A stretch of DNA of 64,000 nt from NCBI RefSeq assembly GCF_000002075.1, contig NW_004797501.1, positions 925,684 through 989,683 of the forward strand. Direction: 5' to 3'. Below the pieces are notes generated by a model, which had not been told where the DNA came from, made no database searches, and saw only the letters and a program-made list of their open reading frames with translations. Below, piece after piece: positions 7,580 through 36,371 of this stretch; position 1 is the stretch's first letter; each line of letters opens with the position of its first letter. A program made the translations under genes and the position numbers. The stretch comes from Aplysia californica. Its lineage: Eukaryota.

Positions 7580-7648
7580 TTAAGTCTTAATGAATTCATG
7601 TAGGTCCCTCCTGTTCTGCCTCAGGTACTCCCTGGAATCCAGGTCCGC
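7580..7648 (-). CDS. ENDOV: Endonuclease V, coding exon 8 (last)
   Basis: Acceptor tttctag|gcg; ADLDSREYLRQNRRDLHEFIKT*; completes the PEPVR-AD..SRE motif containing the last catalytic Asp. Confidence 0.88.
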   Translation of the reverse strand, partial: ADLDSREYLRQNRRDLHEFIKT

Positions 7649-9953: not shown

Positions 9954-10082
9954 CCTTCTGACAGGCTCAGGGATACGGTACTTGCTGCACTCTAGAGCCA
10001 ACCACACTGCTGAGTCTATTGATATCTTGTGGCCAATGGAGACGTAGACCGGGTTTGGTGCTTGGTCATGGACGCGGACACA
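9954..10082 (-). CDS. ENDOV: Endonuclease V, coding exon 7
   Basis: 129 bp, AG/GT bounded; [43 protein letters not shown] (PxYxSxGH and RIPEPVR motifs). Confidence 0.95.
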
Positions 10083-10912: not shown

Positions 10913-10981
10913 CTTTCCAAGGACTTCCCCTGAATCGGACGTCAAATCAAAATCATCGCCAGCACCTGCCAAAGTTTTTTT
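10913..10981 (-). CDS. ENDOV: Endonuclease V, coding exon 6
   Basis: 69 bp, phase 0/0; KKTLAGAGDDFDLTSDSGEVLGK (GDxFxLxxDSGxVLG). Confidence 0.9.
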
Positions 10982-11635: not shown

Positions 11636-11748
11636 CTTTTTCTTATGAGCCTCATCGTCAACGATACCTTGGGCAGATATCAGAGTTTTTGCTACCCCCA
11701 TTGTCGGCACATCCAGGACCACACCCAACTGGCAAGCCAATCCAAATC
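11636..11748 (-). CDS. ENDOV: Endonuclease V, coding exon 5
   Basis: 113 bp; (G)FGLACQLGVVLDVPTMGVAKTLISAQGIVDDEAHKKK; GVAK motif; canonical splice sites. Confidence 0.95.
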
Positions 11749-12168: not shown

Positions 12169-12208
12169 CTCTGGGATGTAACATGCCGTTTCCATCTACC
12201 ATGATGAG
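12169..12208 (-). CDS. ENDOV: Endonuclease V, coding exon 4
   Basis: 40 bp; LIMVDGNGMLHPR (catalytic DGNG motif). Confidence 0.95.
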
Positions 12209-13241: not shown

Positions 13242-13376
13242 ATCTGGCAGATACTGAGGTGCTGACTTTTCCATTTCGTGATACAGATCAACAAGAGCTG
13301 GAACTTCTCGGAAAGCCAAAAAACCTGGTATATATGGCTGAGTAAGCTGAATCATCTCCATCCTCTGGTAAACCAT
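13242..13376 (-). CDS. ENDOV: Endonuclease V, coding exon 3
   Basis: 135 bp; MVYQRMEMIQLTQPYIPGFLAFREVPALVDLYHEMEKSAPQYLPD (PYIP wedge, FLAFRE catalytic Glu). Confidence 0.97.
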
Positions 13377-13593: not shown

Positions 13594-13783
13594 CTGGAGG
13601 TCTGGCATCTGTATCACACTCAAGCAGGCACAGGCATCAACGTTGTTTCCTTTTATGAAGGAAATGTCAACACCACCGATATAAAAACGACCACCACCTT
13701 CTTTTCTTCTGCATCCACTGACAAGGGCAGAGATAACAGGTGTGTCAGTCTTGCAAAGCTGCCTTTTGTAATCAATTTGTTCT
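13594..13783 (-). CDS. ENDOV: Endonuclease V, coding exon 2
   Basis: 190 bp; EQIDYKRQLCKTDTPVISALVSGCRRKEGGGRFYIGGVDISFIKGNNVDACACLSVIQMPDLQ (GGVDxSF catalytic Asp). Confidence 0.95.
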
Positions 13784-15794
13784 CTGTAAAAAAAAAAAAA
13801 ACAGCATTCAAGAAATATGAACGATAATGATTTTATATCTATCCCCCCAAAGGCTAAATCTGGCTTAGTAAGCCTGCATACTTCTTGTCTTTCCTTTACA
13901 GAAAGTAAGAACTAAATTCAAAATATCCTTTATTCTCAAACATAACAGACCTGCGATTGGGGAAAACTCATAATCTGTGGGAAATTAGCAAGACCTAATT
14001 TTTTTATTTTTTTTTAAACAAGTTCATGAGACGATCAATATACAGAATATCAACCAAAAAAAACTCCGTGTCTGAACATGAACATAATCATAATATTATT
14101 ATAATGTGTATAAAACATTTGTATGAAAGTTGCTGAAATCTTATACAGGGAGATAACTGCGTGATAACGAAAAACAAAAATTGTTTCGTAGGTGATGTCC
14201 CTTGGCTTACAGTTTGTAAAAGGGAGGGGGGGTTGGTGGTTAATAACGATTAAAATTGTGTTTTGTGTTTTGAATGTGAATCCATATTGGGGAGATTTTC
14301 AATTTAAAAAATACTGAACCATACCTAAAAAGTACCAGTGATCCTTTTTTTGAGCAATCCTTCTATAACAAGATAGTCAACCTGAGCAAATTTGAAGATA
14401 ATCCATCGGTTGACTAAGGAACAACCATGTACATGTAGCTGACTAGAAAATATTTTAGAGTCTGAAAATCTTAGCATGGGCCACTGCACTGCAGTCTTGT
14501 CACTGGGCCAAAAACACTAGCCTATTTTAATTAAAAAACAAAAATCCGAAAGAAGCAAAATATAAACTAAGATATTACACACGTCATAGAATGATAGAGT
14601 TTCATCAAATCTCTATAATATTTGATATGGTTTGATCCATTTGAGGGCAGCCAGATTTTCATTCATGCAGGAGCAAAAGCTATGATTTTGGGAAAAGTTG
14701 ATCAAATCCTCAAAATTAAAAAATATAATATTTTATAATAGTAATGATACTAATGATACTAAAAATGATAATATTATTACAATAAAATTATATATGAAGG
14801 GCACAAGTGAAAAACTAGCGATGTCAGGTTTTTGCAGTTTCCAGATAATTGAAAAACAAACTTTAAAGACTTACAACTCCTTTTCTGTTACAATGATTTC
14901 TCCACTGTATACATTGACTTCAACTTCAAGTAAGACCATTTATGTTAACAATGGGAAATTTTCATAGTCCTTTGTGACATGGGTGTTTCAGAGAGAGCAA
15001 AATAGAAAAATTAGGTAGCAAACTGACAGCGCTGGATTTTCCCATTTAAGTTGTGGGCAAGGTCTCCATCCACTAGTAAGCCTATGAATTGTGAGTTTCT
15101 TTACTCATTTGCGAATACAAACAAAACTAAAAGATTCAAACAAGAAAATTGCACACCATTTTATAATTATATTTACTACTTTCATTTTTATTCTATTTAA
15201 TATTCATTTTTGGATGATGACTCTGAGTCATCAGACTCTTGTGTGGCACTTGGTCCCCCAGTAAGAGGTAATTCGGAGAAAAGCTGTCGGGCCAGAACAC
15301 CTTCATGTCTGTAGACCTATATTTGGCAGCTTTGATGGTCAGCGGGCTCTTATAGAGGGGTATCAGGAACTGGAGTCTTGCAGCCCGCTTCTTTTCCACC
15401 GGCTTCATAATGATTGCGGTGTGAAACGGACAGTTCCAGCTCTCACTATACAGCATTGGCTGTGGATGGGCCTATGAGATGCAGAGGTCAAGTGGGTATA
15501 TGGCAGGAGACCCTGTAGAAGGGTTTAAGATTTTTTAATACATTTTTTAACACATTCTGGAATACGGCTTGTGTTATCCCCACTATCTGGAGCGGCGAGG
15601 GTTTCCAAAGGGCTGTCTCGAGTTGCTCCACCCAACTGGCTGGCATATCTATGCCATGTCTCTGTCGCATTCCAAGCAGCTGTGGCCTCTCACTGGAAAT
15701 GAGTTGTTGGGCAACAACATGACAGAGAAACCAGATCACCGTCTAGTTCTTGTTCTGGTAGGTGCACGAGTTACATTGCTGGCAGAATGTGAAT

Positions 15795-15995
15795 AAGGGA
15801 ACTGTTGCTTTTCTTTCCTCATCCTTACTATCGTCATTTTCCCCTACTTCTTTTGCATGTTTGGCACACTCTTGTGCTGTTGAGGCTAGAGAGGTGAGCA
15901 GAGTAAGCCTGATTCCCAGTTTGGACTTCTCTGTTGACATCCACCCCTTGGCGCTCATATGACCTTACGCAGTTGCAAGAGAGGTAAAACCTTAC
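15795..15995 (+). repeat. Retroposon 3'-end repeat, family B
   Basis: gctagagaggtgagcagagtaagcctgattccc...ggcgctcatatgacc..gcagttgc; other copies at ~51735-52010 and, split by an insertion, at ~49420-49597 plus 51207-51305. Confidence 0.65.
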
Positions 15996-16310
15996 TAAAG
16001 TTTTTAAAGAATTAAAAGTAATGTACCAGCATGCTAGCCACATCATCCCCACCCTTTTTGCCGATTGTCTCGTAACAGTACAGGTGAACTGTTTCATCAC
16101 TAAGAAAGTACATTTAAAGGAGAAGAAAGATAGCTGCTAACGATTGTACAAATTGTTTGCCGACATTTTTGGGCAGCCCAAGTTCTTTGAAAAATCAAAG
16201 GTTAGGGTAGCATGGGTGCCAATGAATGATTTACCAGTTTAGCAACGCATATAAGAACAGTGCAGGGATTCAAGCCTCAGCTCAGTCCGATGTTGTGTCT
16301 TTGGAAAAGG

Positions 16311-17151
16311 CATCATCATCATCATCATTGCCTTTCTCACCCTGCATCAGGGTATAGGCCACGGACAAACACCCTCCACTTTTCTCTATCCTGGGCTAGC
16401 CTCTTGATGTTATTCCATGTCTTCAAACTTTTCTGTACATCCATTTCTGTGATTCTTCTCTAAGTTCCACAAGGTTTTCCCCTTGATCTCTTGCCCTGTG
16501 GGTTCCAATCCAAAACTTTCTTTGTTATGCAGCTGCCTGACTTCCTGAGAGTATGTCCAATCCATCGCCACCGCCTTCTTCCTATCTCATCTCTGACTGG
16601 GATCTGTCTTGTTTTCCTTAACACTTCCACATTGGTGACCCTATCTGTCCATCTGATCCTCAATGACTTTCTTAGACACCTGTTCAAGAAAACCTGGATC
16701 CTCTTTTACAAGTCTGTAAAGCGTTCCATGCCTCACATCCATACAACAGGACCGACTTCACGTTTGAATTGAAAATCCTCAGCTTTGTTCGAAGTGAGAT
16801 CTCTCTGGTCTTCCAAATCCTATCCAAAGATATGAAAGCAGCCTGTGCTTTTTCCAATGCGGGACTTTATTTCAGCACCTGTTCCTCCCTCTCTGTCAAT
16901 TATGCTCCCCAAGATAACAGAAGGATTCAACGTTTTCTAGGGCCTTTCCTTCTATTGTGACCTGCTGCTTTCGTTGTGCATCTGTCCTTAGGACCTTTGA
17001 CTTTCCGGGGTGGATCCTCAATCCAACAGACTCCGAGGCTGTTTAATACTGAAGTCTTTGCTTGCATCTGTTCCTGGGTGTGCGACAGAAGCACCATGTC
17101 GTCTGCAAAATCCAGATTGTCCAACTGTGTCCATGGTGTCCACTGTATACC
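16311..17151 (-). mobile_element. RTE-clade LINE, degenerate 3' fragment (RT C-terminus)
   Basis: GIQWTPWTQLDNLDFADDMVLLSH (FADD motif), RCLRKSLRIRW..RRRWRWIGHTLR..DWNPQGKRSRGKP; trinucleotide (ATG)n tail at 16311-16328; frameshifts. Confidence 0.9.
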
Positions 17152-17537
17152 AGGCACTTTACATGAATTTCATATTTGGCTCAGTCCTTTCGGGGATGGA
17201 CTTAAACTCAGAGGTCCCGCCTTTTAAATAACCTAATACTGTTGACAGGGTGTTAAATCTATACCATTTCACCATTTGTCACTGAAATATTATTAATTGG
17301 TAACAAAGAGAGGCAACAAAGAAAAGTATGCTTTTAACATCGCTGGTTTTTCCGTTGTTTACGTCCTGACATCGCTGGTTCTTCTATTGTGGGCTATATT
17401 TTCTAACCCTCACAGAGGCTGGCACCACTGGTTTTTTCGTACGTCTTAGACGGACTAAAGCAGACCAAGCCAGGCATCATGCCAGGACAATAACCCAGAA
17501 AATGAAAAAAACTGACATCGCTGGTTTTTCCCTTGTG

Positions 17538-17600
<63 letters not shown>

Positions 17601-17758
17601 ATATGCCTTTATAAAATACCTTTAGGTTTTTAAAACAAAATAATATGAAAAGCAGATAATAGGGTTACAAGGTATCTCTCTTGTACACATGATCTTTATC
17701 AAATTCTTCTTCTTCTTTCTTTTTATCTCTCTCTACCCTCCCCTTCTCTTTCTCTCCC

Positions 17759-17820
<62 letters not shown>

Positions 17821-18213
17821 ATTATCTCTCTCTCATCATTCTCTCTCTAGACACTCTGTCTCTGGCTCTCTCTCCTCCCTTTCTTTGTGTGGTTTGTGGA
17901 TCTCTGTGATCTCTCTTTCTTGATCTCTCTCTGTGTGCCTGNNNNNNNNNNNNNNNNNNNNNNNNNNNNNNNNNNNNNNNNNNNNNNNNNNNNNNNNNNN
18001 NNNNNNNNNNNNNNNNNNNNNNNNNNNNNNNNNNNNNNNNNNNNNNNNNNNNNNNNNNNNNNNNNNNNNNNNNNNNNNNNAGACATTGCCTCACATATTA
18101 ACTCCCTCTTCCTCTTTGCTAATCTTCTATTGTAACTCTCAGTTTAATCATAATGAGTCTCAAGAGTAGTATCAAGAGTCTTCAATATTTCAATGCATAC
18201 GATTAGTACTTAC

Positions 18214-18614
18214 TTTTCCCACTTTTCTCTAATATCACTAGCAACGAGGTTTCCTGCTAAACTCCTTGGGGATTTCTCCTTTTTTACAATAGTCCATCCA
18301 GGGTCAGTATTACCTTGATTACCACCACTAGTATTATGACCCTTTGGTTGACTGCTTTTCGAAGAAGTCTGTCTGTCTGCCTCATCATCACTGGAAGATG
18401 TTGAAATATTCATAGAACGATGTGAGTAAAAGTCTGTGGCGGCAGAGTTTCCATGACCAGAGACAGGCTGGCTACTCCCACTATTATGGCATAATTCACA
18501 ATCACAAGGTTCACGTGCAGTCTTGCGCTTTCGTTTCATTTCATTGCAGGGATTGCAATATTCTGATTCAACATTGGGCGGGAGAAGTATCCCACAGTCA
18601 TCACAGAAATCCAT
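18214..18614 (-). CDS. ENDOV: Endonuclease V, coding exon 1 with long N-terminal extension
   Basis: ATG at 18614 (in-frame stop upstream at 18642-18644). The open frame ends WE-aa|gtaagta (phase 2) and joins exon 2 to give IREKWEKEQ, matching the conserved W..EQ start of eukaryotic ENDOV. Total CDS 1146 nt, 381 aa. Confidence 0.82.
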
Positions 18615-19039
18615 CACTTTTGTCTCTTTAAAGAACTGAAATCAGTTGAAACTAGATCTAAGTAGTTCTGCAGTTTCACCAATTTCATTTAACAATTCAA
18701 GCAAAAGCCTTCTAGTTCCTTCAGGGTAAGATGTATTGTTAATGTATTGAGGCCGAGCTAACAAAATTACAAACAACAACTTGAAAGTCACTTATTTGAC
18801 TTTGATGGCATGGACTTTTTGTTGATGTTGAGCAAAGGCAAAGGAAAATGACAAACTGATCATGCTAATAGCAACTGTTGGAATTCAGTGGGAAGAAGAG
18901 CGGTAGAGCTTGCTATATATGGTTAACTACGTTTCTTGGATTGCACCACGCTGCATAAGCTAAGCGAACTTTCAGGTAGAATCTAGTTTCTAAAGAAATT
19001 AGACGACGTGAATTCGTTTCATTGGTACTGCATCATTCT

Positions 19040-19200
19040 AAATCGAGAACCTTTCGTTACTTCCGTAAACAACAACTCAAGAAGGGACGCTACTCTATGG
19101 CAATATGTTGCATTTTGCTTGGTTTCATTTTTTATCTTTTTTTTTAACGAAATTTATTTCAAATTAATAGATCTAGGATCTAGATCTAGATCTAGTAGCG
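19040..19200 (-). promoter_or_regulatory. Putative ENDOV promoter region (ETS-type ACGGAAGTAA at 19057-19066; TCTAGA array at 19168-19196)
   Basis: ETS core GGAAG 10-mer identical to the one at 48510-48519; locally raised CpG; ~450 bp upstream of the ATG. TSS not determined. Confidence 0.4.
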
Positions 19201-23984: not shown

Positions 23985-26900
23985 TACGTCGTATCGAAAA
24001 ATCAGGACGTATTCAATCTCACGAAGAGTCGTATCATATCATACGTCACTTCGTGAGATACAATAACAATATACTGCTCTCTCAGTATCAGTCATTGCCA
24101 ATCTCACGAAGGGACGTATCGCTTTCAACAGTGGTTCATAGGCATTGGCATTTGGCCTCTCGCAGCCCTTAAACGTGCCAATGGGCAATCTGGCATGAGG
24201 CAGTGGAAGTTCATGCAGTCATTACGCACGTAGTCTTGAAACTTGTTTACAGAAACTGCGATTTTCTGCTGAAGCTCTTTAAAAACGTGTGCCTTTTGGC
24301 TGATGTTATCTCTAAATGCCAGGGTGCTACTGCGGAGGAGTCTTTTGAGTTTGACAATTCTGACACTGATCCATCATTTCAACCGGGGCTGTGTGAAGCT
24401 AGGCGTTGTAAAGAGGAAGTTTTTGCAGCATGCGATAGGTGTGATGCTCTTTTTTGCTACGTTCATTTTTTGGAGGACACAAATGTGTGTGATCATGGCA
24501 ATAGGAAGAAAACAGCATTGACCAAGAAAAAGAGGAAAAGAAAACAGAATTGACCAAGAAAAAGAGGAAAAGAAAACAGAATTGACCAAGAAAAAGAAGG
24601 AAAACAAAGCAGTGAAAGAAAATAGAAAGGTGCCTGAATCCAGTGAACAACCAGAACATTTCGTTCTTGAAGGCTCACGAAAAGAACATGCAGTTGAAAA
24701 ACATCCACGAATCAATAAGCAAAAGGCAGCCAAGAGAAAATTGGCTTCAGATGAAGATTATTTCAGCCCTTATACAAAGAAAGTCATGCCTGCAAAAAAA
24801 ATGAGGGAAGCCTGCTTAGGTGTTACGTGCAAGAATAGAGCACTAGAGTGTGATACAATCACAGAGTCACTGAGGAAAGACATTTTCCAAGAATTCTATT
24901 CACTTGCAAGCCTCCAACTCCAACGTGAGTTCATTCTGCGCCATGTAGTGAACAGTGACAAGAAAAAGGAAAGCTCACACCAAAGTCGGCGCCAGAAGAC
25001 CAATGTATATTACCTGACTGCTCAAGGAAGCCTTGTTAAAGTTTGCAAAAAACTCTTTTTGAACACTTTAGCCATGTCAGACAGAACAGTGAGAACAGCC
25101 TTCAAGAAATTGACACCCAGTGGAACAATAGAGAAAGAAAGAAGAGGTGGTCGGCAGTCAGCTAAAATTGTTGAAAGAGACACAAAAATTCGAAATGACA
25201 TTGAAGAGCACCTGCGGCGGTTCCCAAGGATGGAGTCGCATTATTGCCGTGCAAGCACTGCAAAGGAGTATCTGCCCCCAGACCTGAACCTTAGAAAAAT
25301 GTACTCCAGGTTTCTAGAGCAGTACCATGGGACTGACCCCCTCCAAGTTTCAGTACGTACAGTCGAGTGTTCAAAAAAGCAAATATGGCGTTCCACACCC
25401 CCATAAAGGACCAATGCTCACTGTGCACAACGTTCTTTGAAGGGGATGAAACAACAAAGGCTGAACTCAAGGACGCATTCGAGAAACATGTCTCTGAAAA
25501 GAAAAGAGTAAGAGAAATAAAGGAGGAATGCAAGCAAAGAGCATCAACGGATGAAACAGTTCTGAGTGCTACATTCGATCTGCAGCAAGTAATCTATCTT
25601 CCCATCTCGAATGAAAGTGCTTTGTTTTACAAGCGGCGCTTCTCCAACTATAACCTGACTTTTTATAACCTCGGAAATGCTGACTGCCACTGCTTCCTGT
25701 GGAATGAAAGCCAAAGCAAGCGTGGAAGCTCAGAAATATCCACAGCTGTGTTCGAAGCGCTTCAGCACTATGACAGTTGTGGAAAAAAGATAGCATACCT
25801 CTTTTCGGATGGCTGCCAGGGGCAGAACAAAAACACTATCATTCCAACAATGTTGCTATACTCTGTGAACACACTTCCAAATCTCAGAGAGATCTCTCAG
25901 CGGTTCTTTGTGACAAACTACGGCCAAATGAGGGGGACTCTGTTCATTGCACTATCTTCTCTGCGATGTCTGCAGCTGGGAACGTCTATGTACCAACAGA
26001 GCTGACGCCCATATTCAGACTTGCCAGAGTAAAGCAGCCTTACACCACGATACCACTTGAGTTCTCTGACTTTTGGAATTTCAAGCAATTGTCACTCGAC
26101 CTGTGTGTTCTGGGAGTTCAAAGAGATTCAGAGAGTGACACTATCAACTGGAACAAAATGATGTAGTTCAGAGTTCTGAAGGAGTGCCCAACAACAATAT
26201 TCTTCAAAACCAGCCATAATGAGTCAGCGTACAGAACAATCCAATTGAAGAGACACACAAAGCAAACCACAGAGAGTTTCACTCTCTTGAAACTCAACAC
26301 AGAACCAACCAAAGTTCCAATGGCTAAGTACAATGACTTAGTGTCGCTGTGCTCTGGCGTAACGCCAGTGGTAAGACAAGCTGATCACAAGGCTCTCTAT
26401 TTTTCACTTCCCCATTAAATTTGACTGAGATATTCTTGGATACTCATAGTGTTACTTACTCATACATCTACATTATGTGAATTGCTGTCCAACATGGTTA
26501 CAGTTCAAATGAGCTAAAACAGCTCCAAAATATGTCTTTATTTGTTCAAATTTTCTTCAATAAACAATTGGTAATCGTAGTGAGATCTCATGTTTTTTAT
26601 GCCATTGTGATTTGGTTTTCTCATTTTGCGTATTATGAAACAAAAATTAGAAACACAGTGTTTTTCCTTCCTGCAATACAAAGAAAATGTAATAATACGA
26701 CACTTGGTGAGATGTCCATTGATGATGGGACCGATGAAGGTATATTTCACGAAGTGACGTATCGGATTTTCTCCCGATTTTCTCACAGGAATGATACAAT
26801 ACTGCCGAAAACAGCATGTGGAGTGAAAATGTACCGCTCAAAGAAGCTTTGATCCAAACCGCATAGATTCCAGTCTTCCGGTTTTGACGCTAGAGCAAAA

Positions 26901-26985
26901 AGAAAAGTGCCAAAAACTTTAAAGCTCTCTCCTGCAAAACTCTAATTTTGCAGATACGACACTTCGTGAGATGACCGACGATATA
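23985..26985 (+). mobile_element. DNA transposon, probably Sola1-like, with frameshifted transposase (24203-26418)
   Basis: Segments 24203-24553, 24582-25406, 25367-26005 and 25930-26418 carry SHYCRAST, FHTPxKDQC, FDLQQ..P, FYKRRFSNYNLTFY, WNE..KRGSSEI, FSDGCxGQNKN and EGDSVH; premature TAG at 26164; repeated subterminal motif atctcacgaagtgacgtatc at both ends. Superfamily assigned from motif memory; left boundary approximate. Confidence 0.75.
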
Positions 26986-27085
26986 NNNNNNNNNNNNNNN
27001 NNNNNNNNNNNNNNNNNNNNNNNNNNNNNNNNNNNNNNNNNNNNNNNNNNNNNNNNNNNNNNNNNNNNNNNNNNNNNNNNNNNNN

Positions 27086-28855
27086 CCTGCGGCGGTTCCC
27101 AAGGATGGAGTCGCATTATTGCCGTGCAAGCACTGCAAAGGAGTATCTGCACCCAGACCTGAACCTTAGAAAAAATGTACTCCATGTTTCTAGAGCAGTA
27201 CCATGGGACTGACCCCTCCAAGTTTCAGTACGTACAGTCGAGTGTTCAAAAAAGCAAATCTGGCGTTCCACACCCCCAAAAAAGACCAATGCTCACTGTG
27301 CACAACGTTCTTTGAAGGGGATGAAACAACAAAGGCTGAACTCAAGGACGCATTCGAGAAACATGTCTCTGAAAAGAAAAGAGTAAGTAAAGGAGGAATG
27401 CAAGCAACGGGCATCAAAGGATGAAACAGTTCTGAGTGCTACATTCGATCTGCAGCAAGTAATCTATCTTCCCATCTCGAATGAAAGTGCTTTGTTTTAC
27501 AAGCGGCGCTTCTCCAACTACAACCTGACTTTTTATAACCTTGGACGTACTGACTGCCACTGCTTCCTGTGGAATGAAAGCCAAAGCAAGCGTGGAAGCT
27601 CAGAAATATCCACAGCTGTGTTCGAAGCGCTTCAGCACTATGACAGTTGTGGTAAAAAGATAGCATACCTCTTTTCGGATGGCTGTCCGGGGCAGAACAA
27701 AAACACTATCATTCCAACAATGTTGCTATACTCTGTGAACACACTTCCAAATCTCAGAGAGATCTCCCAGCGGTTCTTTGTGACAAACTACGGCCAAATG
27801 AAGGGGGACTCTGTTCATAGCACTATCTCCTCTGCGATGTCTGCAGCTGGGAACGTCTATGTACCAACAGAGCTGACGCCCATATTCAGACTTGCCAGAC
27901 CAAAGCAGCCTTACACCGTGATGCCGCTTGAGTTCTCTGACTTTTGGAATTTCAAGCAATTGTCACTCGACCTGCGTGTTCTGGGAGTTCAAAGAGATTC
28001 AGAGAGTGACACTATCAACTGGAACAAAATGATGGAGTTCAGAGTTCTGAAGGAGTGCCCAACAACAATATTCTTCAAAACCAGCCATATTGAGTCAGAT
28101 TACAGAACAATCCAATTGAAGAGACACACAAAGCAAACCACAGAGAGTTTCACTCTCTTCAAACTCAACACAGAACCAACCAAAGTTCCAATGGCTAAGT
28201 ACAATGACTTAGTGTCGCTGTGCTCTGGCGTAACGCCTGTGGTAAGACAAGCTGATCACAAGGCTTTCTATTTTTCACTTCCCCATTAAATTTGACTGAG
28301 ATATTCTTGGATATTCATAGTGTTACTTACTGATACATCTACATTATGTGAATTGCTGTCCAACATGGTTGCAGTTCAAATGAGCTAAAACGTCTCCAAA
28401 ATATGTCTTTATTTGTTCAAATTTTCTTCAATAAACAATTGGAAATCGTAGTGAGATCTCATGTTTTTTTATGCCATTGTGATTTGGTTTTCTCATTTTG
28501 CGTATTATGAAACAAAAATTAGAAACACGGTGTTTTTCCTTCATATAATACAAAGAAAATATAATAATACGACACTTGGTGAGACGTCCATTGATGGTGG
28601 GACCGATGAAGGTATATCTCACGAAGTGACGTATCGGATTTTCTGCCGATTTTCTCACAGGAATGATACAATACTGCCGAAAACAGCATGTGGAGTGAAA
28701 GTGTACCGCTCAAAGAAGCTTTGATCCAAACCGCATAGATTCCAGTCTTCCGGTTTTGACGCCAGAGCAAAAAGAAAAGTGCCAAAAACTTTAAAGCTCT
28801 CTCCTGCAAAACTCTAATTTTGCAGATACGACACTTCGTGAGATGACCGACGATA
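27086..28855 (+). mobile_element. Second, partial copy of the same transposon (3' half; ORF 27492-28289)
   Basis: Near-identical to 25211-26985 immediately after a 100-N gap; ends gagatgaccgacgata followed by (TA)n. Confidence 0.8.
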
Positions 28856-33617: not shown

Positions 33618-35192
33618 CTAAACTTTTTGGAAGAAATCCGTTATGGAAGATTGCTTCCTTCTCTTCAGAGAAACCATCTCAATGTCGGAGGAAATATTGC
33701 CAAGGACATTGACATACTGTTCAGCTTGGGGAAAGTCGTGAGCCTGGATAAACTCTCTCAGCTTTTGTAGAGCCTCCCTCGCCTCTGCTGCAGTTGGGAC
33801 GGATGGAGGAGTGGGACTGTCATCCTGCTCTTGTTCTTCGTTATTTGTAACACTAACAGACGCACAGACTTCCTCTGTGCTGAGCTGTCCTGTTGTCTCG
33901 ACGGCATCGTCCACTGAGAAAAAGTCTTCGAGGGAGACTCCTGGTGGCAGAAATTTCTTTGCCATCGCTTCGAACAGGTTGTCCGTGCCATTAGAAGCAG
34001 TTGCAGGTGAAGTTGATGTTTCCTCAAAGTCTGTTGTTGGTGTAGCATCGTCGGGTGGTTGCTCACTTCCAACCACAAATCCCGCGTGCCTGAAGGAGTT
34101 TTTCACTGTGGCACAGGAGACGAGATTCCAAGCAGCCTTCAGTTCATACATGGCATCGAGAAGCGACATTTCAAAGGTATCAGCGCTCTTACCATCCTCC
34201 GCGTAAGCAATGAGTTTGCGGAAGACAATTGTTCGATAGTGCTTTTTCAGGGAAGCGATGATGCCCTGGCTGCATGGCTGAAGTACAGAGGTTGTGTTGG
34301 GTGGAAGTCGCACCAGTGTCACGGCCTGTAGGTTATTGATATTGGGGTGGGCAGGGCAGTTATCGATGACAAGTGCGATCTTCCTTCCTTCAAGCTTGAA
34401 ACGGGCATCCAGCGATCTCACCCAGTCCACAAACAAGGCCGCCGTCATCCACGATTTTTTGTTGGCCTTATACTGCAGGGGCAGGTACTTGCAATATTTG
34501 AAGCAGTGAGGTCGATTGAACTTCCCTATGATAAGCAATGGCAGTTTGTCACTGCCGTCCATGTTGGCAGCAACCAGCACTGTGAGTCGGTTTCTGGGCG
34601 CTTTTCCACCATTGCATTTCTCTCCCTTGAGTGCGAGGGCCTTGGAAGGGAGACACCGATAAAACAGGCCTGTTTCATCGGCGTTGTATATGTCTCTGGG
34701 CTCAAAGTCTCTAAGAAATGTCAGCAAACCCTTTGTTCGCGATTCCGTTGGCATTAATGACTCAGTCTTGACAGCAGCCGACTCTCCACAGACGGACTTG
34801 TACAGGATGCCATAGCGTTTCTTGAAACGATCAAGCCAGCCAGTGTTGCTTTTGAAATCAAGGCCCATCTCAGCCCCAATCTCTTCTGCCTTCGACATCA
34901 AGATCGGCCCTGATATGGGGATAGCCATGGCTCGGGCTTGCTTAAACCAAACGAACAGAGATTTCTCAATGGCATCGGACTTTACTGTGCGTTGCTTTTT
35001 TCTGCTTGGTTGGCATGCCTCGCTCTGACTGTTGATTTTGTCCCGATTTTTTATGAAGGTGGACAGGGTTGACTTTGGGATATCGAACTGCTTGCAAATG
35101 TCTGTTTTGCTCATTGTTTTTTGATCCACGAGAGCCAGGATTTCACGTTTCTTCTCAAACGTGAGACAGTTGAGTTTCCTCTTCTCTGCCAT
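33618..35192 (-). CDS. Tigger/pogo-family transposase (TIGD4/6-like), 524 aa, uninterrupted ORF
   Basis: MAEKRKLNCLTFEKK (CENP-B N HTH), PISGPILMSKA..GWLDRFKKR (HTH Tc5), IYNADETGLF, LVIDNCPAH, LPPNTTSVLQPCSQGII, C-terminal KQSSITDFF. Element end ...gtggactttactg-TA at 35715. Confidence 0.92.
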   Translation of the reverse strand: MAEKRKLNCLTFEKKREILALVDQKTMSKTDICKQFDIPKSTLSTFIKNRDKINSQSEACQPSRKKQRTVKSDAIEKSLFVWFKQARAMAIPISGPILMSKAEEIGAEMGLDFKSNTGWLDRFKKRYGILYKSVCGESAAVKTESLMPTESRTKGLLTFLRDFEPRDIYNADETGLFYRCLPSKALALKGEKCNGGKAPRNRLTVLVAANMDGSDKLPLLIIGKFNRPHCFKYCKYLPLQYKANKKSWMTAALFVDWVRSLDARFKLEGRKIALVIDNCPAHPNINNLQAVTLVRLPPNTTSVLQPCSQGIIASLKKHYRTIVFRKLIAYAEDGKSADTFEMSLLDAMYELKAAWNLVSCATVKNSFRHAGFVVGSEQPPDDATPTTDFEETSTSPATASNGTDNLFEAMAKKFLPPGVSLEDFFSVDDAVETTGQLSTEEVCASVSVTNNEEQEQDDSPTPPSVPTAAEAREALQKLREFIQAHDFPQAEQYVNVLGNISSDIEMVSLKRRKQSSITDFFQKV

Positions 35193-36371
35193 CACTCTTA
35201 GGTCTAAGTGTCTAAGTTGTAACAATGAGACGGTGATGATGAACGTGTTGACGGTGTGAAAGCAAAAAGATGAATGAATGTGGAAAGCTAAAAATCTCAC
35301 ATATGCACAGGCGACTTCTACGTCTTTCCTTTCCTCTCATTTCATTGGCTTTCAGAAAGTTACGCTTCTTGCCATCCGTATCGCGCGCGTCCCATAGCAT
35401 GTCTGCACACCTGGCGAGCCAGTTGTGTGGTGCGGTCAGTATCATTCCCCAACCCCCCTTCCTCCAGCCCCTTGTGGTGAGACAAGGACCACGTTTTGAA
35501 TGTAACAATAACAAAAAAACACCTACCCGCAGCCAGAAAGGCTGTAAAGCCGGTCTTTAGTAGAGAATGCGGAGTGGATTTGTTCGAAATTCGAGTGTTG
35601 CGTGTTGGAGTGTGTTTGGGAACTCTGTGAAGTCAATACAAAGAAAACAACTAAAACGGGACCGAGGATTATGTTTGAGAAACCCATGAATTCATGATTT
35701 TCGTGGACTTTACTGTAAATTACTGATTATCTCCCCTCTACCATTCCCAGATTGAACTTGGATCGCGCATGCACTATTTGGTTTGAGAGGGGGGGGGGCT
35801 TTTTATAAATATTTATTTGGTTTCACCATTTAACACTAACAGCACTGAAGAGAAAAAGCAAAAATACGAACAATGAACATGACATGTTAGTTTTAGTAAG
35901 AGTTTTACGGCACTTGCAACACAATAAGGTAATATAAGCTGAAGATTAGATGTGTTACAAGGGAGTAACAAACACAAAAAAGGAGGAGAGATCAGGACGA
36001 TAGATGTAATGATAGGAAAGAAGGAGCAAACCACACCAGAGCACTCACCAATCACCAATGACAATGATCTAATGAGTTGTCACAAATGCAAATTACTAGA
36101 CATAGTTGAAGTTATGTAATTTTTTTTAAAAGTGGAAAAATCCTAGCAAATAAAAGTAAATGAAATGAGTAAGCAATAGGTACAGTTGGATATTTCATCA
36201 ATGGTAGCATTATCCTCACACTTGTCATTTACATAGAACACCAAATAAAAGAACAGAAAACGAATTAAAGCAAAAGGAAAACATATGACATGCACAGGTA
36301 AGCAAGAACTGCCAGAATTCTTCTGAACTTTTTGTATATCTACCAGCAAATAATTTAATTTACTGCAAGAA

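Follow-up and report, generated by a model that had tools for sequence, protein, structure and literature searches.

Introduction

Endonuclease V (ENDOV) has been reported to cleave RNA specifically at inosine in Ciona, mouse and human (PMC8526164, PMC3741635), and it has been argued that the enzyme needs tight regulation through compartments or partners (PMC3741635). Human ENDOV, which has no N-terminal extension of the kind considered below, is reported to be cytoplasmic with some nucleolar signal, the latter depending on its C-terminal tail (PMC6839837), and the ENDOV knockout mouse is reported to be viable with no visible abnormalities (PMC7192598). The in vivo role of eukaryotic ENDOV and its control are open questions. 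Among small zinc-binding folds, the treble clef is defined by an N-terminal knuckle (CxxCG) and a second ligand pair at the start of a helix, and treble clefs bind nucleic acids too (PMC4999995).

Our analysis concerns the ENDOV of the sea hare Aplysia californica, which carries a seven-cysteine module ahead of its catalytic core. The gene lies in a stretch of 64,000 nucleotides (the window, whose positions are used throughout) and is already annotated; the part of interest here is the module, which matches no Pfam family at cut-off.

Results

The sea hare ENDOV gene and its transcripts

The A. californica ENDOV gene (RefSeq XP_005100019.1, 381 amino acids) occupies eight exons on the minus strand. 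The genome has three PF04493 matches, every one inside this locus, which makes ENDOV a single-copy gene; no second, module-less ENDOV was found among these matches. Read from the ATG at 18614, the minus-strand frame begins MDFCDDCGILLPPNVESEYCNPC and runs through KRKRK and CDCELCH into a serine-rich linker and on to KWE, where a phase-2 GT donor at 18213 closes the frame of exon 1. The gene is laid out as follows.

18615..19064, minus strand: 5' leader, at most 450 nt of exon 1; the contigs begin at 19028, 19047, 19047 and 19064
18214..18614, minus strand: coding sequence of exon 1 for residues 1-133, with two further bases, joined to 13783
13784..18213, minus strand: intron 1, GT..AG, phase 2, 4,430 nt
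13594..13783, minus strand: exon 2, with catalytic D173
13242..13376, minus strand: exon 3, with wedge Y212 and catalytic E221
12169..12208, minus strand: exon 4, with catalytic D247; contig joint read with the cut at +1
11636..11748, minus strand: exon 5, from contig joints and joined translation
10913..10981, minus strand: exon 6, from contig joints and joined translation
9954..10082, minus strand: exon 7, from contig joints and joined translation
7580..7648, minus strand: coding part of exon 8, with D361 and the stop TAA; a loose contig end at 9953 enters this exon

Exons 1-7, when joined, give the first 359 residues of XP_005100019.1, and exon 8 (7648-7580) supplies the remainder. Contigs from all four runs, which come from four studies, cover exon 1 from 18214 to 19028-19064. 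In each of the four the loose contig end at 18214 is the start of exon 2 (13754-13783), and the loose end at 13783 continues into exon 1 in all three runs among the matches listed. Five downstream joints with canonical ends recur in 4/4 runs in a second contig mapping, and runs X3 and X9 carry exons 1-7 on single contigs. A preliminary description, made from the sequence of the window, had proposed both the 18214/13783 junction and a long N-terminal extension on ENDOV; the contigs bear this out, with the cysteine motifs included in the spliced exon and the extension transcribed and spliced in frame. This transcript evidence consists of the spliced structure of contigs from runs whose kind was guessed in each case, and contigs reveal neither the main start site of ENDOV nor whether it is translated. 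Apart from a change at codon 31, considered below, the contigs differ from the assembly by one silent difference in all four runs and, in one run, by an in-frame insertion of 6 nt directly behind the last module cysteine, at the start of the linker.

The catalytic core matches PF04493, aligns with human ENDOV (4NSP) at E 5.6e-70 and is modelled with a pLDDT above 90. Residues D173, Y212, E221, D247 and D361 are invariant in 20/20 aligned ENDOVs, so the four catalytic acidic residues (D173, E221, D247 and D361) are intact, as first described; we take D361 to be the counterpart of human D240. The other four invariant residues correspond to D52, Y91, E100 and D126 of the human enzyme, in the order D173, Y212, E221, D247 (PMC4842958). 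Since the core residues match the human catalytic set, the sea hare protein is, by analogy, likely to be an active inosine-specific RNase.

Several other elements were observed in the window. Intron 1 contains a broken reverse-transcriptase fragment (about 16460-17231, minus strand), which we take to be RTE-like LINE material. At 24173-28289 (plus strand) lie two transposase-like fragments, partly duplicated, of a presumably Sola-like DDE DNA transposon, and a transposase with an open frame of 572 codons, possibly recent or domesticated and to our eye Tigger/pogo-like, lies at 33618-35336 (minus strand). An exon at 47767-48045 (minus strand) presumably resembles SMIM4/UQCC5.

A seven-cysteine module at the N-terminus

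The N-terminus of A. californica ENDOV carries seven cysteines in the pattern CxxCG-x-CxxC-x-CxCxxC. Exon 1 and its leader contain the following elements.

18614..18688, minus strand: upstream open reading frame of 24 codons, whose TGA overlaps the ENDOV ATG (TGATG)
18546..18605, minus strand: C4 unit, C4-x2-C7-G-x11-C20-x2-C23, a predicted treble-clef zinc finger
18522..18536, minus strand: KRKRK patch, located on the predicted helix; it reads KRKRY in 4/4 runs and is not conserved
18489..18506, minus strand: second cysteine cluster, C37-x-C39-x2-C42, three putative ligands invariant in 10/10 rows
18261..18485, minus strand: serine-rich linker, residues 44-118, predicted to be disordered
18214..18260, minus strand: first residues of the ENDOV core helix (119-133, including W132; helix 119-142 in the model)

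None of 200,000 shuffles of the exon-1 peptide produced the full pattern, and the single hit among 795 six-frame window ORFs of at least 40 amino acids is ENDOV exon 1 itself; together with the spliced contigs, these counts led us to reject an artefact or a chance ORF. Nine residues (C4, C7, G8, L10, C20, C23, C37, C39 and C42) are invariant in all ten aligned gastropod rows. The conservation of the cysteines in mollusc orthologues, on which the preliminary description had staked its reading, is thereby confirmed, and this extends to the second cluster (CDCELCH) that it had pointed out. Nine invariant residues in an otherwise divergent extension imply that selection acts on the protein.

These residues, held across subclasses, weigh against the reading that the extension is transcribed and left mostly untranslated, with translation starting at Met26 or Met68, or that it is an artefact of the gene model. 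The leader does contain seven upstream ATGs, no fewer than chance would give (6.3 expected, hence no enrichment). Of the three in-frame ATGs, however, Met1 lies in the most favourable context (GTG-ATG-G, with G at -3 and +4), and the sole indel observed keeps the frame and falls outside the module; we regard the non-translation of the extension as extremely improbable. The nearest upstream in-frame stop is a TGA at 18644-18642, and the TGATG overlap of the upstream ORF could reflect reinitiation control or chance.

Distribution of the module among molluscs

Of 1,487 ENDOV matches we considered the best 120, among which 15 have a CxxC ahead of the core, all of them from molluscs or grouping with molluscs, and ten have the full seven-cysteine pattern. 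These ten come from Aplysia, Elysia chlorotica, Bulinus, Littorina, Nucella, Babylonia, Batillaria, Haliotis and Gigantopelta, together with one further sequence. The module is also present in Biomphalaria, Plakobranchus, Elysia marginata and further pieces, which brings the set to 20 sequences from heterobranch, caenogastropod, vetigastropod and neomphaline snails. In caenogastropod ENDOVs (P0011, P0014, P0015, P0027, P0164 and P0174) the C4 unit is duplicated. The two copies are linked by a conserved TPCG that holds an extra cysteine. Outside the snails, the pearl oyster Pinctada and one bivalve-grade sequence have the C4 unit without the three-cysteine site, and a scallop-sister sequence keeps three cysteines of the C4 unit.

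The module is absent from the gene models of Lymnaea, Physella, Pomacea and one Nucella paralogue, and three ENDOVs of the land-snail clade (P0010, P0012 and P0013) have a Cys/His-rich region in its place, which in Candidula and Bradybaena contains many 11-residue repeats and whose cysteine cluster is reminiscent of metallothionein. The module-less snail models and the land-snail replacement indicate that the module can be lost. Some of the apparent losses may be start-codon calls; P0007, for example, is P0156 read from an internal Met. The Nucella sequences P0014 and P0024 are ENDOV paralogues with close locus tags, one of them with the module and the other with a repeat-rich N-terminus that lacks it. 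A separate case is P0105, a non-mollusc-like ENDOV with a 148-residue N-terminal extension that presumably resembles an RRM and is possibly another, independent accessory domain on ENDOV.

A tree of 52 ENDOV cores, chosen from the matches with most vertebrate and unassigned rows left out and rooted at the midpoint, places all 11 seven-cysteine rows in the gastropod clade (support 99/94), where rows that lack the module are interspersed with them. This topology fits one early gain of the module and later losses. The lineage-specific domain gain proposed at the outset thus holds in the sense that the module is restricted to one lineage, but that lineage spans the gastropods, with remnants in bivalves, and is not confined to Aplysia.

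Searches beyond ENDOV

A profile of the module, searched against 1.84 billion proteins, gave 19 matches at E<=0.001, of which ten show the whole module at the N-terminus of an ENDOV and nine match through C4-type or simple repeats only. In a separate search with the module profile, 12 proteins appeared at E<=10, all of them ENDOV or pieces of ENDOV exon 1. A word-based search with exon 1 alone returned nothing beyond XP_005100019.1 itself; DNA and protein searches of the sea hare genome for a source copy of the module returned the ENDOV locus only. No module match under E 0.001 was found in BFVD, and the best ESM Atlas scores of 0.83 and 0.86 are leads only. The literature searched, which lies outside subscription journals and supplements, contains no description of the module on ENDOV.

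Predicted fold of the module

AlphaFold models of the module alone (10 sequences) and of the full protein (58 sequences) both give residues 1-30 a pLDDT of 83-91 and both contain a helix at residues 21-32 (18554-18519) that begins at the second CxxC. The CxCxxC part is modelled at low confidence (pLDDT 54-60), the module-only run has a pTM of 0.45 with two of its five models near pLDDT 55, and the beta content of the module model is confined to bridges at residues 3 and 10. In these models the C4 unit is predicted to adopt the ligand layout of a treble clef, a knuckle and then a CxxC where a helix begins, and the present fold of the module is likely to be a treble clef. The remaining cysteines, C37, C39 and C42, would likely form an incomplete second metal site.

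Fold searches returned weak neighbours throughout (best Z 3.0-3.1, no Foldseek E under 0.001), among them TraR (Z 2.5, rmsd 1.8, 35 residues aligned), the ClpX ZBD, YacG, GATA, E6 and T4 endonuclease VII. We take the chains to be mostly treble clefs, and several are ribosomal or DNA-binding. The 48-residue model gives rows of Z 2-3 only; the PDB fold rows list neither a polymerase-subunit ribbon nor a ZNRD2 chain, an absence that excludes nothing. Other readings of the cysteine pattern were discarded. The RING (C3HC4) consensus has a C-x-H pair and eight cross-brace ligands; single modules have no C-x-H pair before the third CxxC, and CGH occurs in one of the six duplicated caenogastropod modules. 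A20 and MYND were dropped on comparison with their consensus patterns.

Likeness to polymerase-subunit ribbons and the basic patch

The preliminary description had likened the start of the protein to the zinc ribbon of RPA12-type RNA polymerase subunits. As far as sequence likeness goes this stands: ribbons (RPA12, SSSCA1 and RpoM) are the top PDB rows by sequence profile, with E values of 0.005, 0.027 and 0.091 for RPA12 and 0.01 for RpoM, and hhalign aligns the module with the sea hare's own RPA12-like exon at a probability of 79.5. A PF02150 match, on the other hand, was not recovered, and the models predict a different fold. Across the 23 alignment rows scanned, which hold 22 different sequences, PF02150 is not matched once (0/10 at E<=1 and 0/13 at E<=5), the hhalign match spans 13 columns and covers only the first knuckle, and the probability against the RPC11-like exon is 3. 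In a polymerase-subunit ribbon the second knuckle is part of a beta-hairpin, and CxxC(G/P) leads into a strand; the RPA12-like and RPC11-like ribbons of the sea hare itself carry CxxCP; the AlphaFold check suggested for the N-terminal residues yields the knuckle, but with a helix and not a ribbon strand after the second CxxC. A profile of 27 C4 units scores the RPA12-like ribbon at 3.5 bits and the RPC11-like ribbon at -0.2, against up to 19.7 for C4 repeats, a comparison that leans toward the repeats since they had been found with a related profile.

The basic patch bears on the same question. Codon 31 (18522-18524) encodes Lys in the assembly and Tyr in 4/4 runs, a difference of two bases, so the expressed patch reads KRKRY and the reference holds either a rare allele or an error; A-to-I editing was rejected as the source, since the sense-strand changes are A>T and G>C. 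Despite K31Y, K27-R28-K29-R30 fits the classical monopartite NLS consensus K[KR]x[KR], and to this extent the NLS-like patch seen at the outset is present in Aplysia. A general function for it does not follow, since the motif is in place in only two of the 20 module-bearing sequences. A strong basic patch somewhere in the extension occurs in 7/20 against 2.9 expected, which would favour targeting, but four of the seven belong to close sacoglossan kin, and human ENDOV is reported to be partly nucleolar already, owing to its C-terminal tail (PMC6839837). Some species may use the patch for nuclear targeting, but this would leave the conserved cysteines unexplained. That the extension is an RPA12/RPC11-type ribbon plus NLS, taken from an RNA polymerase subunit and sending ENDOV to the nucleus or nucleolus, is on all these grounds very unlikely.

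Helix charge, possible docking surface and predicted tether

Binding of RNA by the module, whether hyper-edited double-stranded RNA, tRNA or rRNA, would raise the affinity or selectivity of the enzyme, and parts of the evidence point this way: several of the weak fold neighbours are treble clefs that bind DNA or belong to the ribosome, the similar sequences that score best outside ENDOV consist of C4 units in tandem whose helices are basic, the Aplysia helix is itself basic (six K/R), and the caenogastropod duplication would fit avidity. Across orthologues, however, the predicted helix has 0-6 K/R and no conserved basic position, whereas the helices of the prokaryote-like C4 repeats are basic; most orthologues have 0-4 K/R with about two D/E, and the net charge of the extension is negative in 13/20. 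We therefore consider RNA binding unlikely. The residue after the knuckle Gly is I, F or Y in 25/25 gastropod C4 units. With conserved non-ligand residues that are hydrophobic and a helix that is not consistently basic, docking to a protein is favoured over binding to RNA.

Between module and core, most of residues 44-109 have a pLDDT under 50, and the linker varies ninefold among orthologues, from 21 to 193 residues, which fits a tether better than fixed packing of the module as a lid on the core.

Discussion

A model for the seven-cysteine module

We propose that the seven-cysteine module is a zinc-finger protein-docking unit on a disordered tether, a reading that we consider about evenly balanced between right and wrong. 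In the predicted knuckle-plus-helix fold, C4, C7, C20 and C23 would bind one zinc ion, and C37, C39 and C42 would take a fourth ligand from a bridging cysteine, from a second copy or from a partner. I9 of Aplysia, at the conserved hydrophobic position that follows the Gly, would form part of the docking face, through which the module would bring ENDOV onto a partner, or onto a second ENDOV copy, by way of the flexible tether. The enzyme itself would cut RNA 3' of inosine, as its Ciona, mouse and human orthologues do, and the module would alter where or when inosine cleavage happens and leave the chemistry as it is.

The seven invariant cysteines are an odd number, which leaves one site unsaturated and raises the alternative of a metal, redox or nitric-oxide sensor, in which a weak three-cysteine metal site would switch the activity, stability or location of the enzyme upon oxidation, nitrosation or uptake of a different metal. 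Land snails have exchanged the module for another Cys/His-rich sequence, as if ligands and not a fold were being kept, nitrosative deamination is reported to yield inosine (PMC8526164), and human ENDOV is reported to relocate under oxidative stress (PMC6839837). The pearl-oyster version, however, is without the three-cysteine site, and the repeats of the land snails may have expanded independently of it; a sensor of this kind appears distinctly unlikely to us. It is likewise distinctly improbable, in our estimate, that the module is an undescribed seven-cysteine two-zinc domain in which a treble clef is joined by a CxCxxC half-site that is completed by a dimer or partner and acts as a metal- or redox-gated switch. 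If such a two-zinc gated switch were real, an animal endonuclease V would carry a so far unnamed accessory domain that gates the attack on edited RNA, and the partner of this domain would indicate what ENDOV does in vivo.

The module has a long history on this enzyme. The gastropod subclasses split roughly 450-500 million years ago, and since then the module has been kept on ENDOV, duplicated in one subclass and replaced or lost in others. It offers a natural handle toward an ENDOV partner or substrate class, and as a 45-residue unit with no Pfam family at cut-off it is a candidate for a new curated family; its reach is modest until a partner of the module is found.

Comparison with known systems

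Compared with human and mouse ENDOV (PF04493; PDB 4NSP, 6OZE and 5AOY), the Aplysia protein has the same core and catalytic residues, and differs in its predicted folded cysteine module and in a short C-terminal tail of about 17 residues after DSREY. Ahead of the conserved Trp there are 131 residues in A. californica, as against 16 in marsupial and monotreme rows.

The ribbons of RPA12, RPC11, RPB9 and RpoM share with the module the MxFCxxCGxLL start and a similar spacing. The module departs from them in the predicted helix after its second CxxC, in having no Gly or Pro after the fourth Cys (0/27 C4 units within three residues), and in the position of the hydrophobic residue before the third Cys, which stands at -1 (21/27 C4 units) rather than at -2 (4/27). 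SSSCA1/ZNRD2 (PF06677, PDB 6HCZ) is matched by the module profile at E 0.013 and 0.0077, and its C4 site is reported to adjoin a disordered region (PMC7070046), as predicted for the module. The helix that precedes this site and mediates dimerization in ZNRD2 is absent from the module, PF06677 matches two of the 23 rows, both below cut-off (best E 0.0064 and 0.013), and the sea hare has a separate ZNRD2 gene elsewhere.

The tandem CxxCG-x(11-16)-CxxC-helix repeats (P0163 and P0167-P0171) agree with the module in spacing and in the hydrophobic residue before the third Cys. These prokaryote- or phage-like C4 units differ from it in being repeated, in their basic helices and in being without either CxCxxC or an ENDOV domain; at E values of 1e-5 to 1e-3, convergence is as likely as kinship. 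The mononuclear treble clefs of TraR/DksA, the ClpX ZBD, YacG and GATA have the same CxxCG knuckle and the same CxxC at the helix start as the models of the module. The module differs from these in that its model shows no clear primary beta-hairpin and no family HMM matches it at cut-off, and in snails it adds a CxCxxC after the helix.
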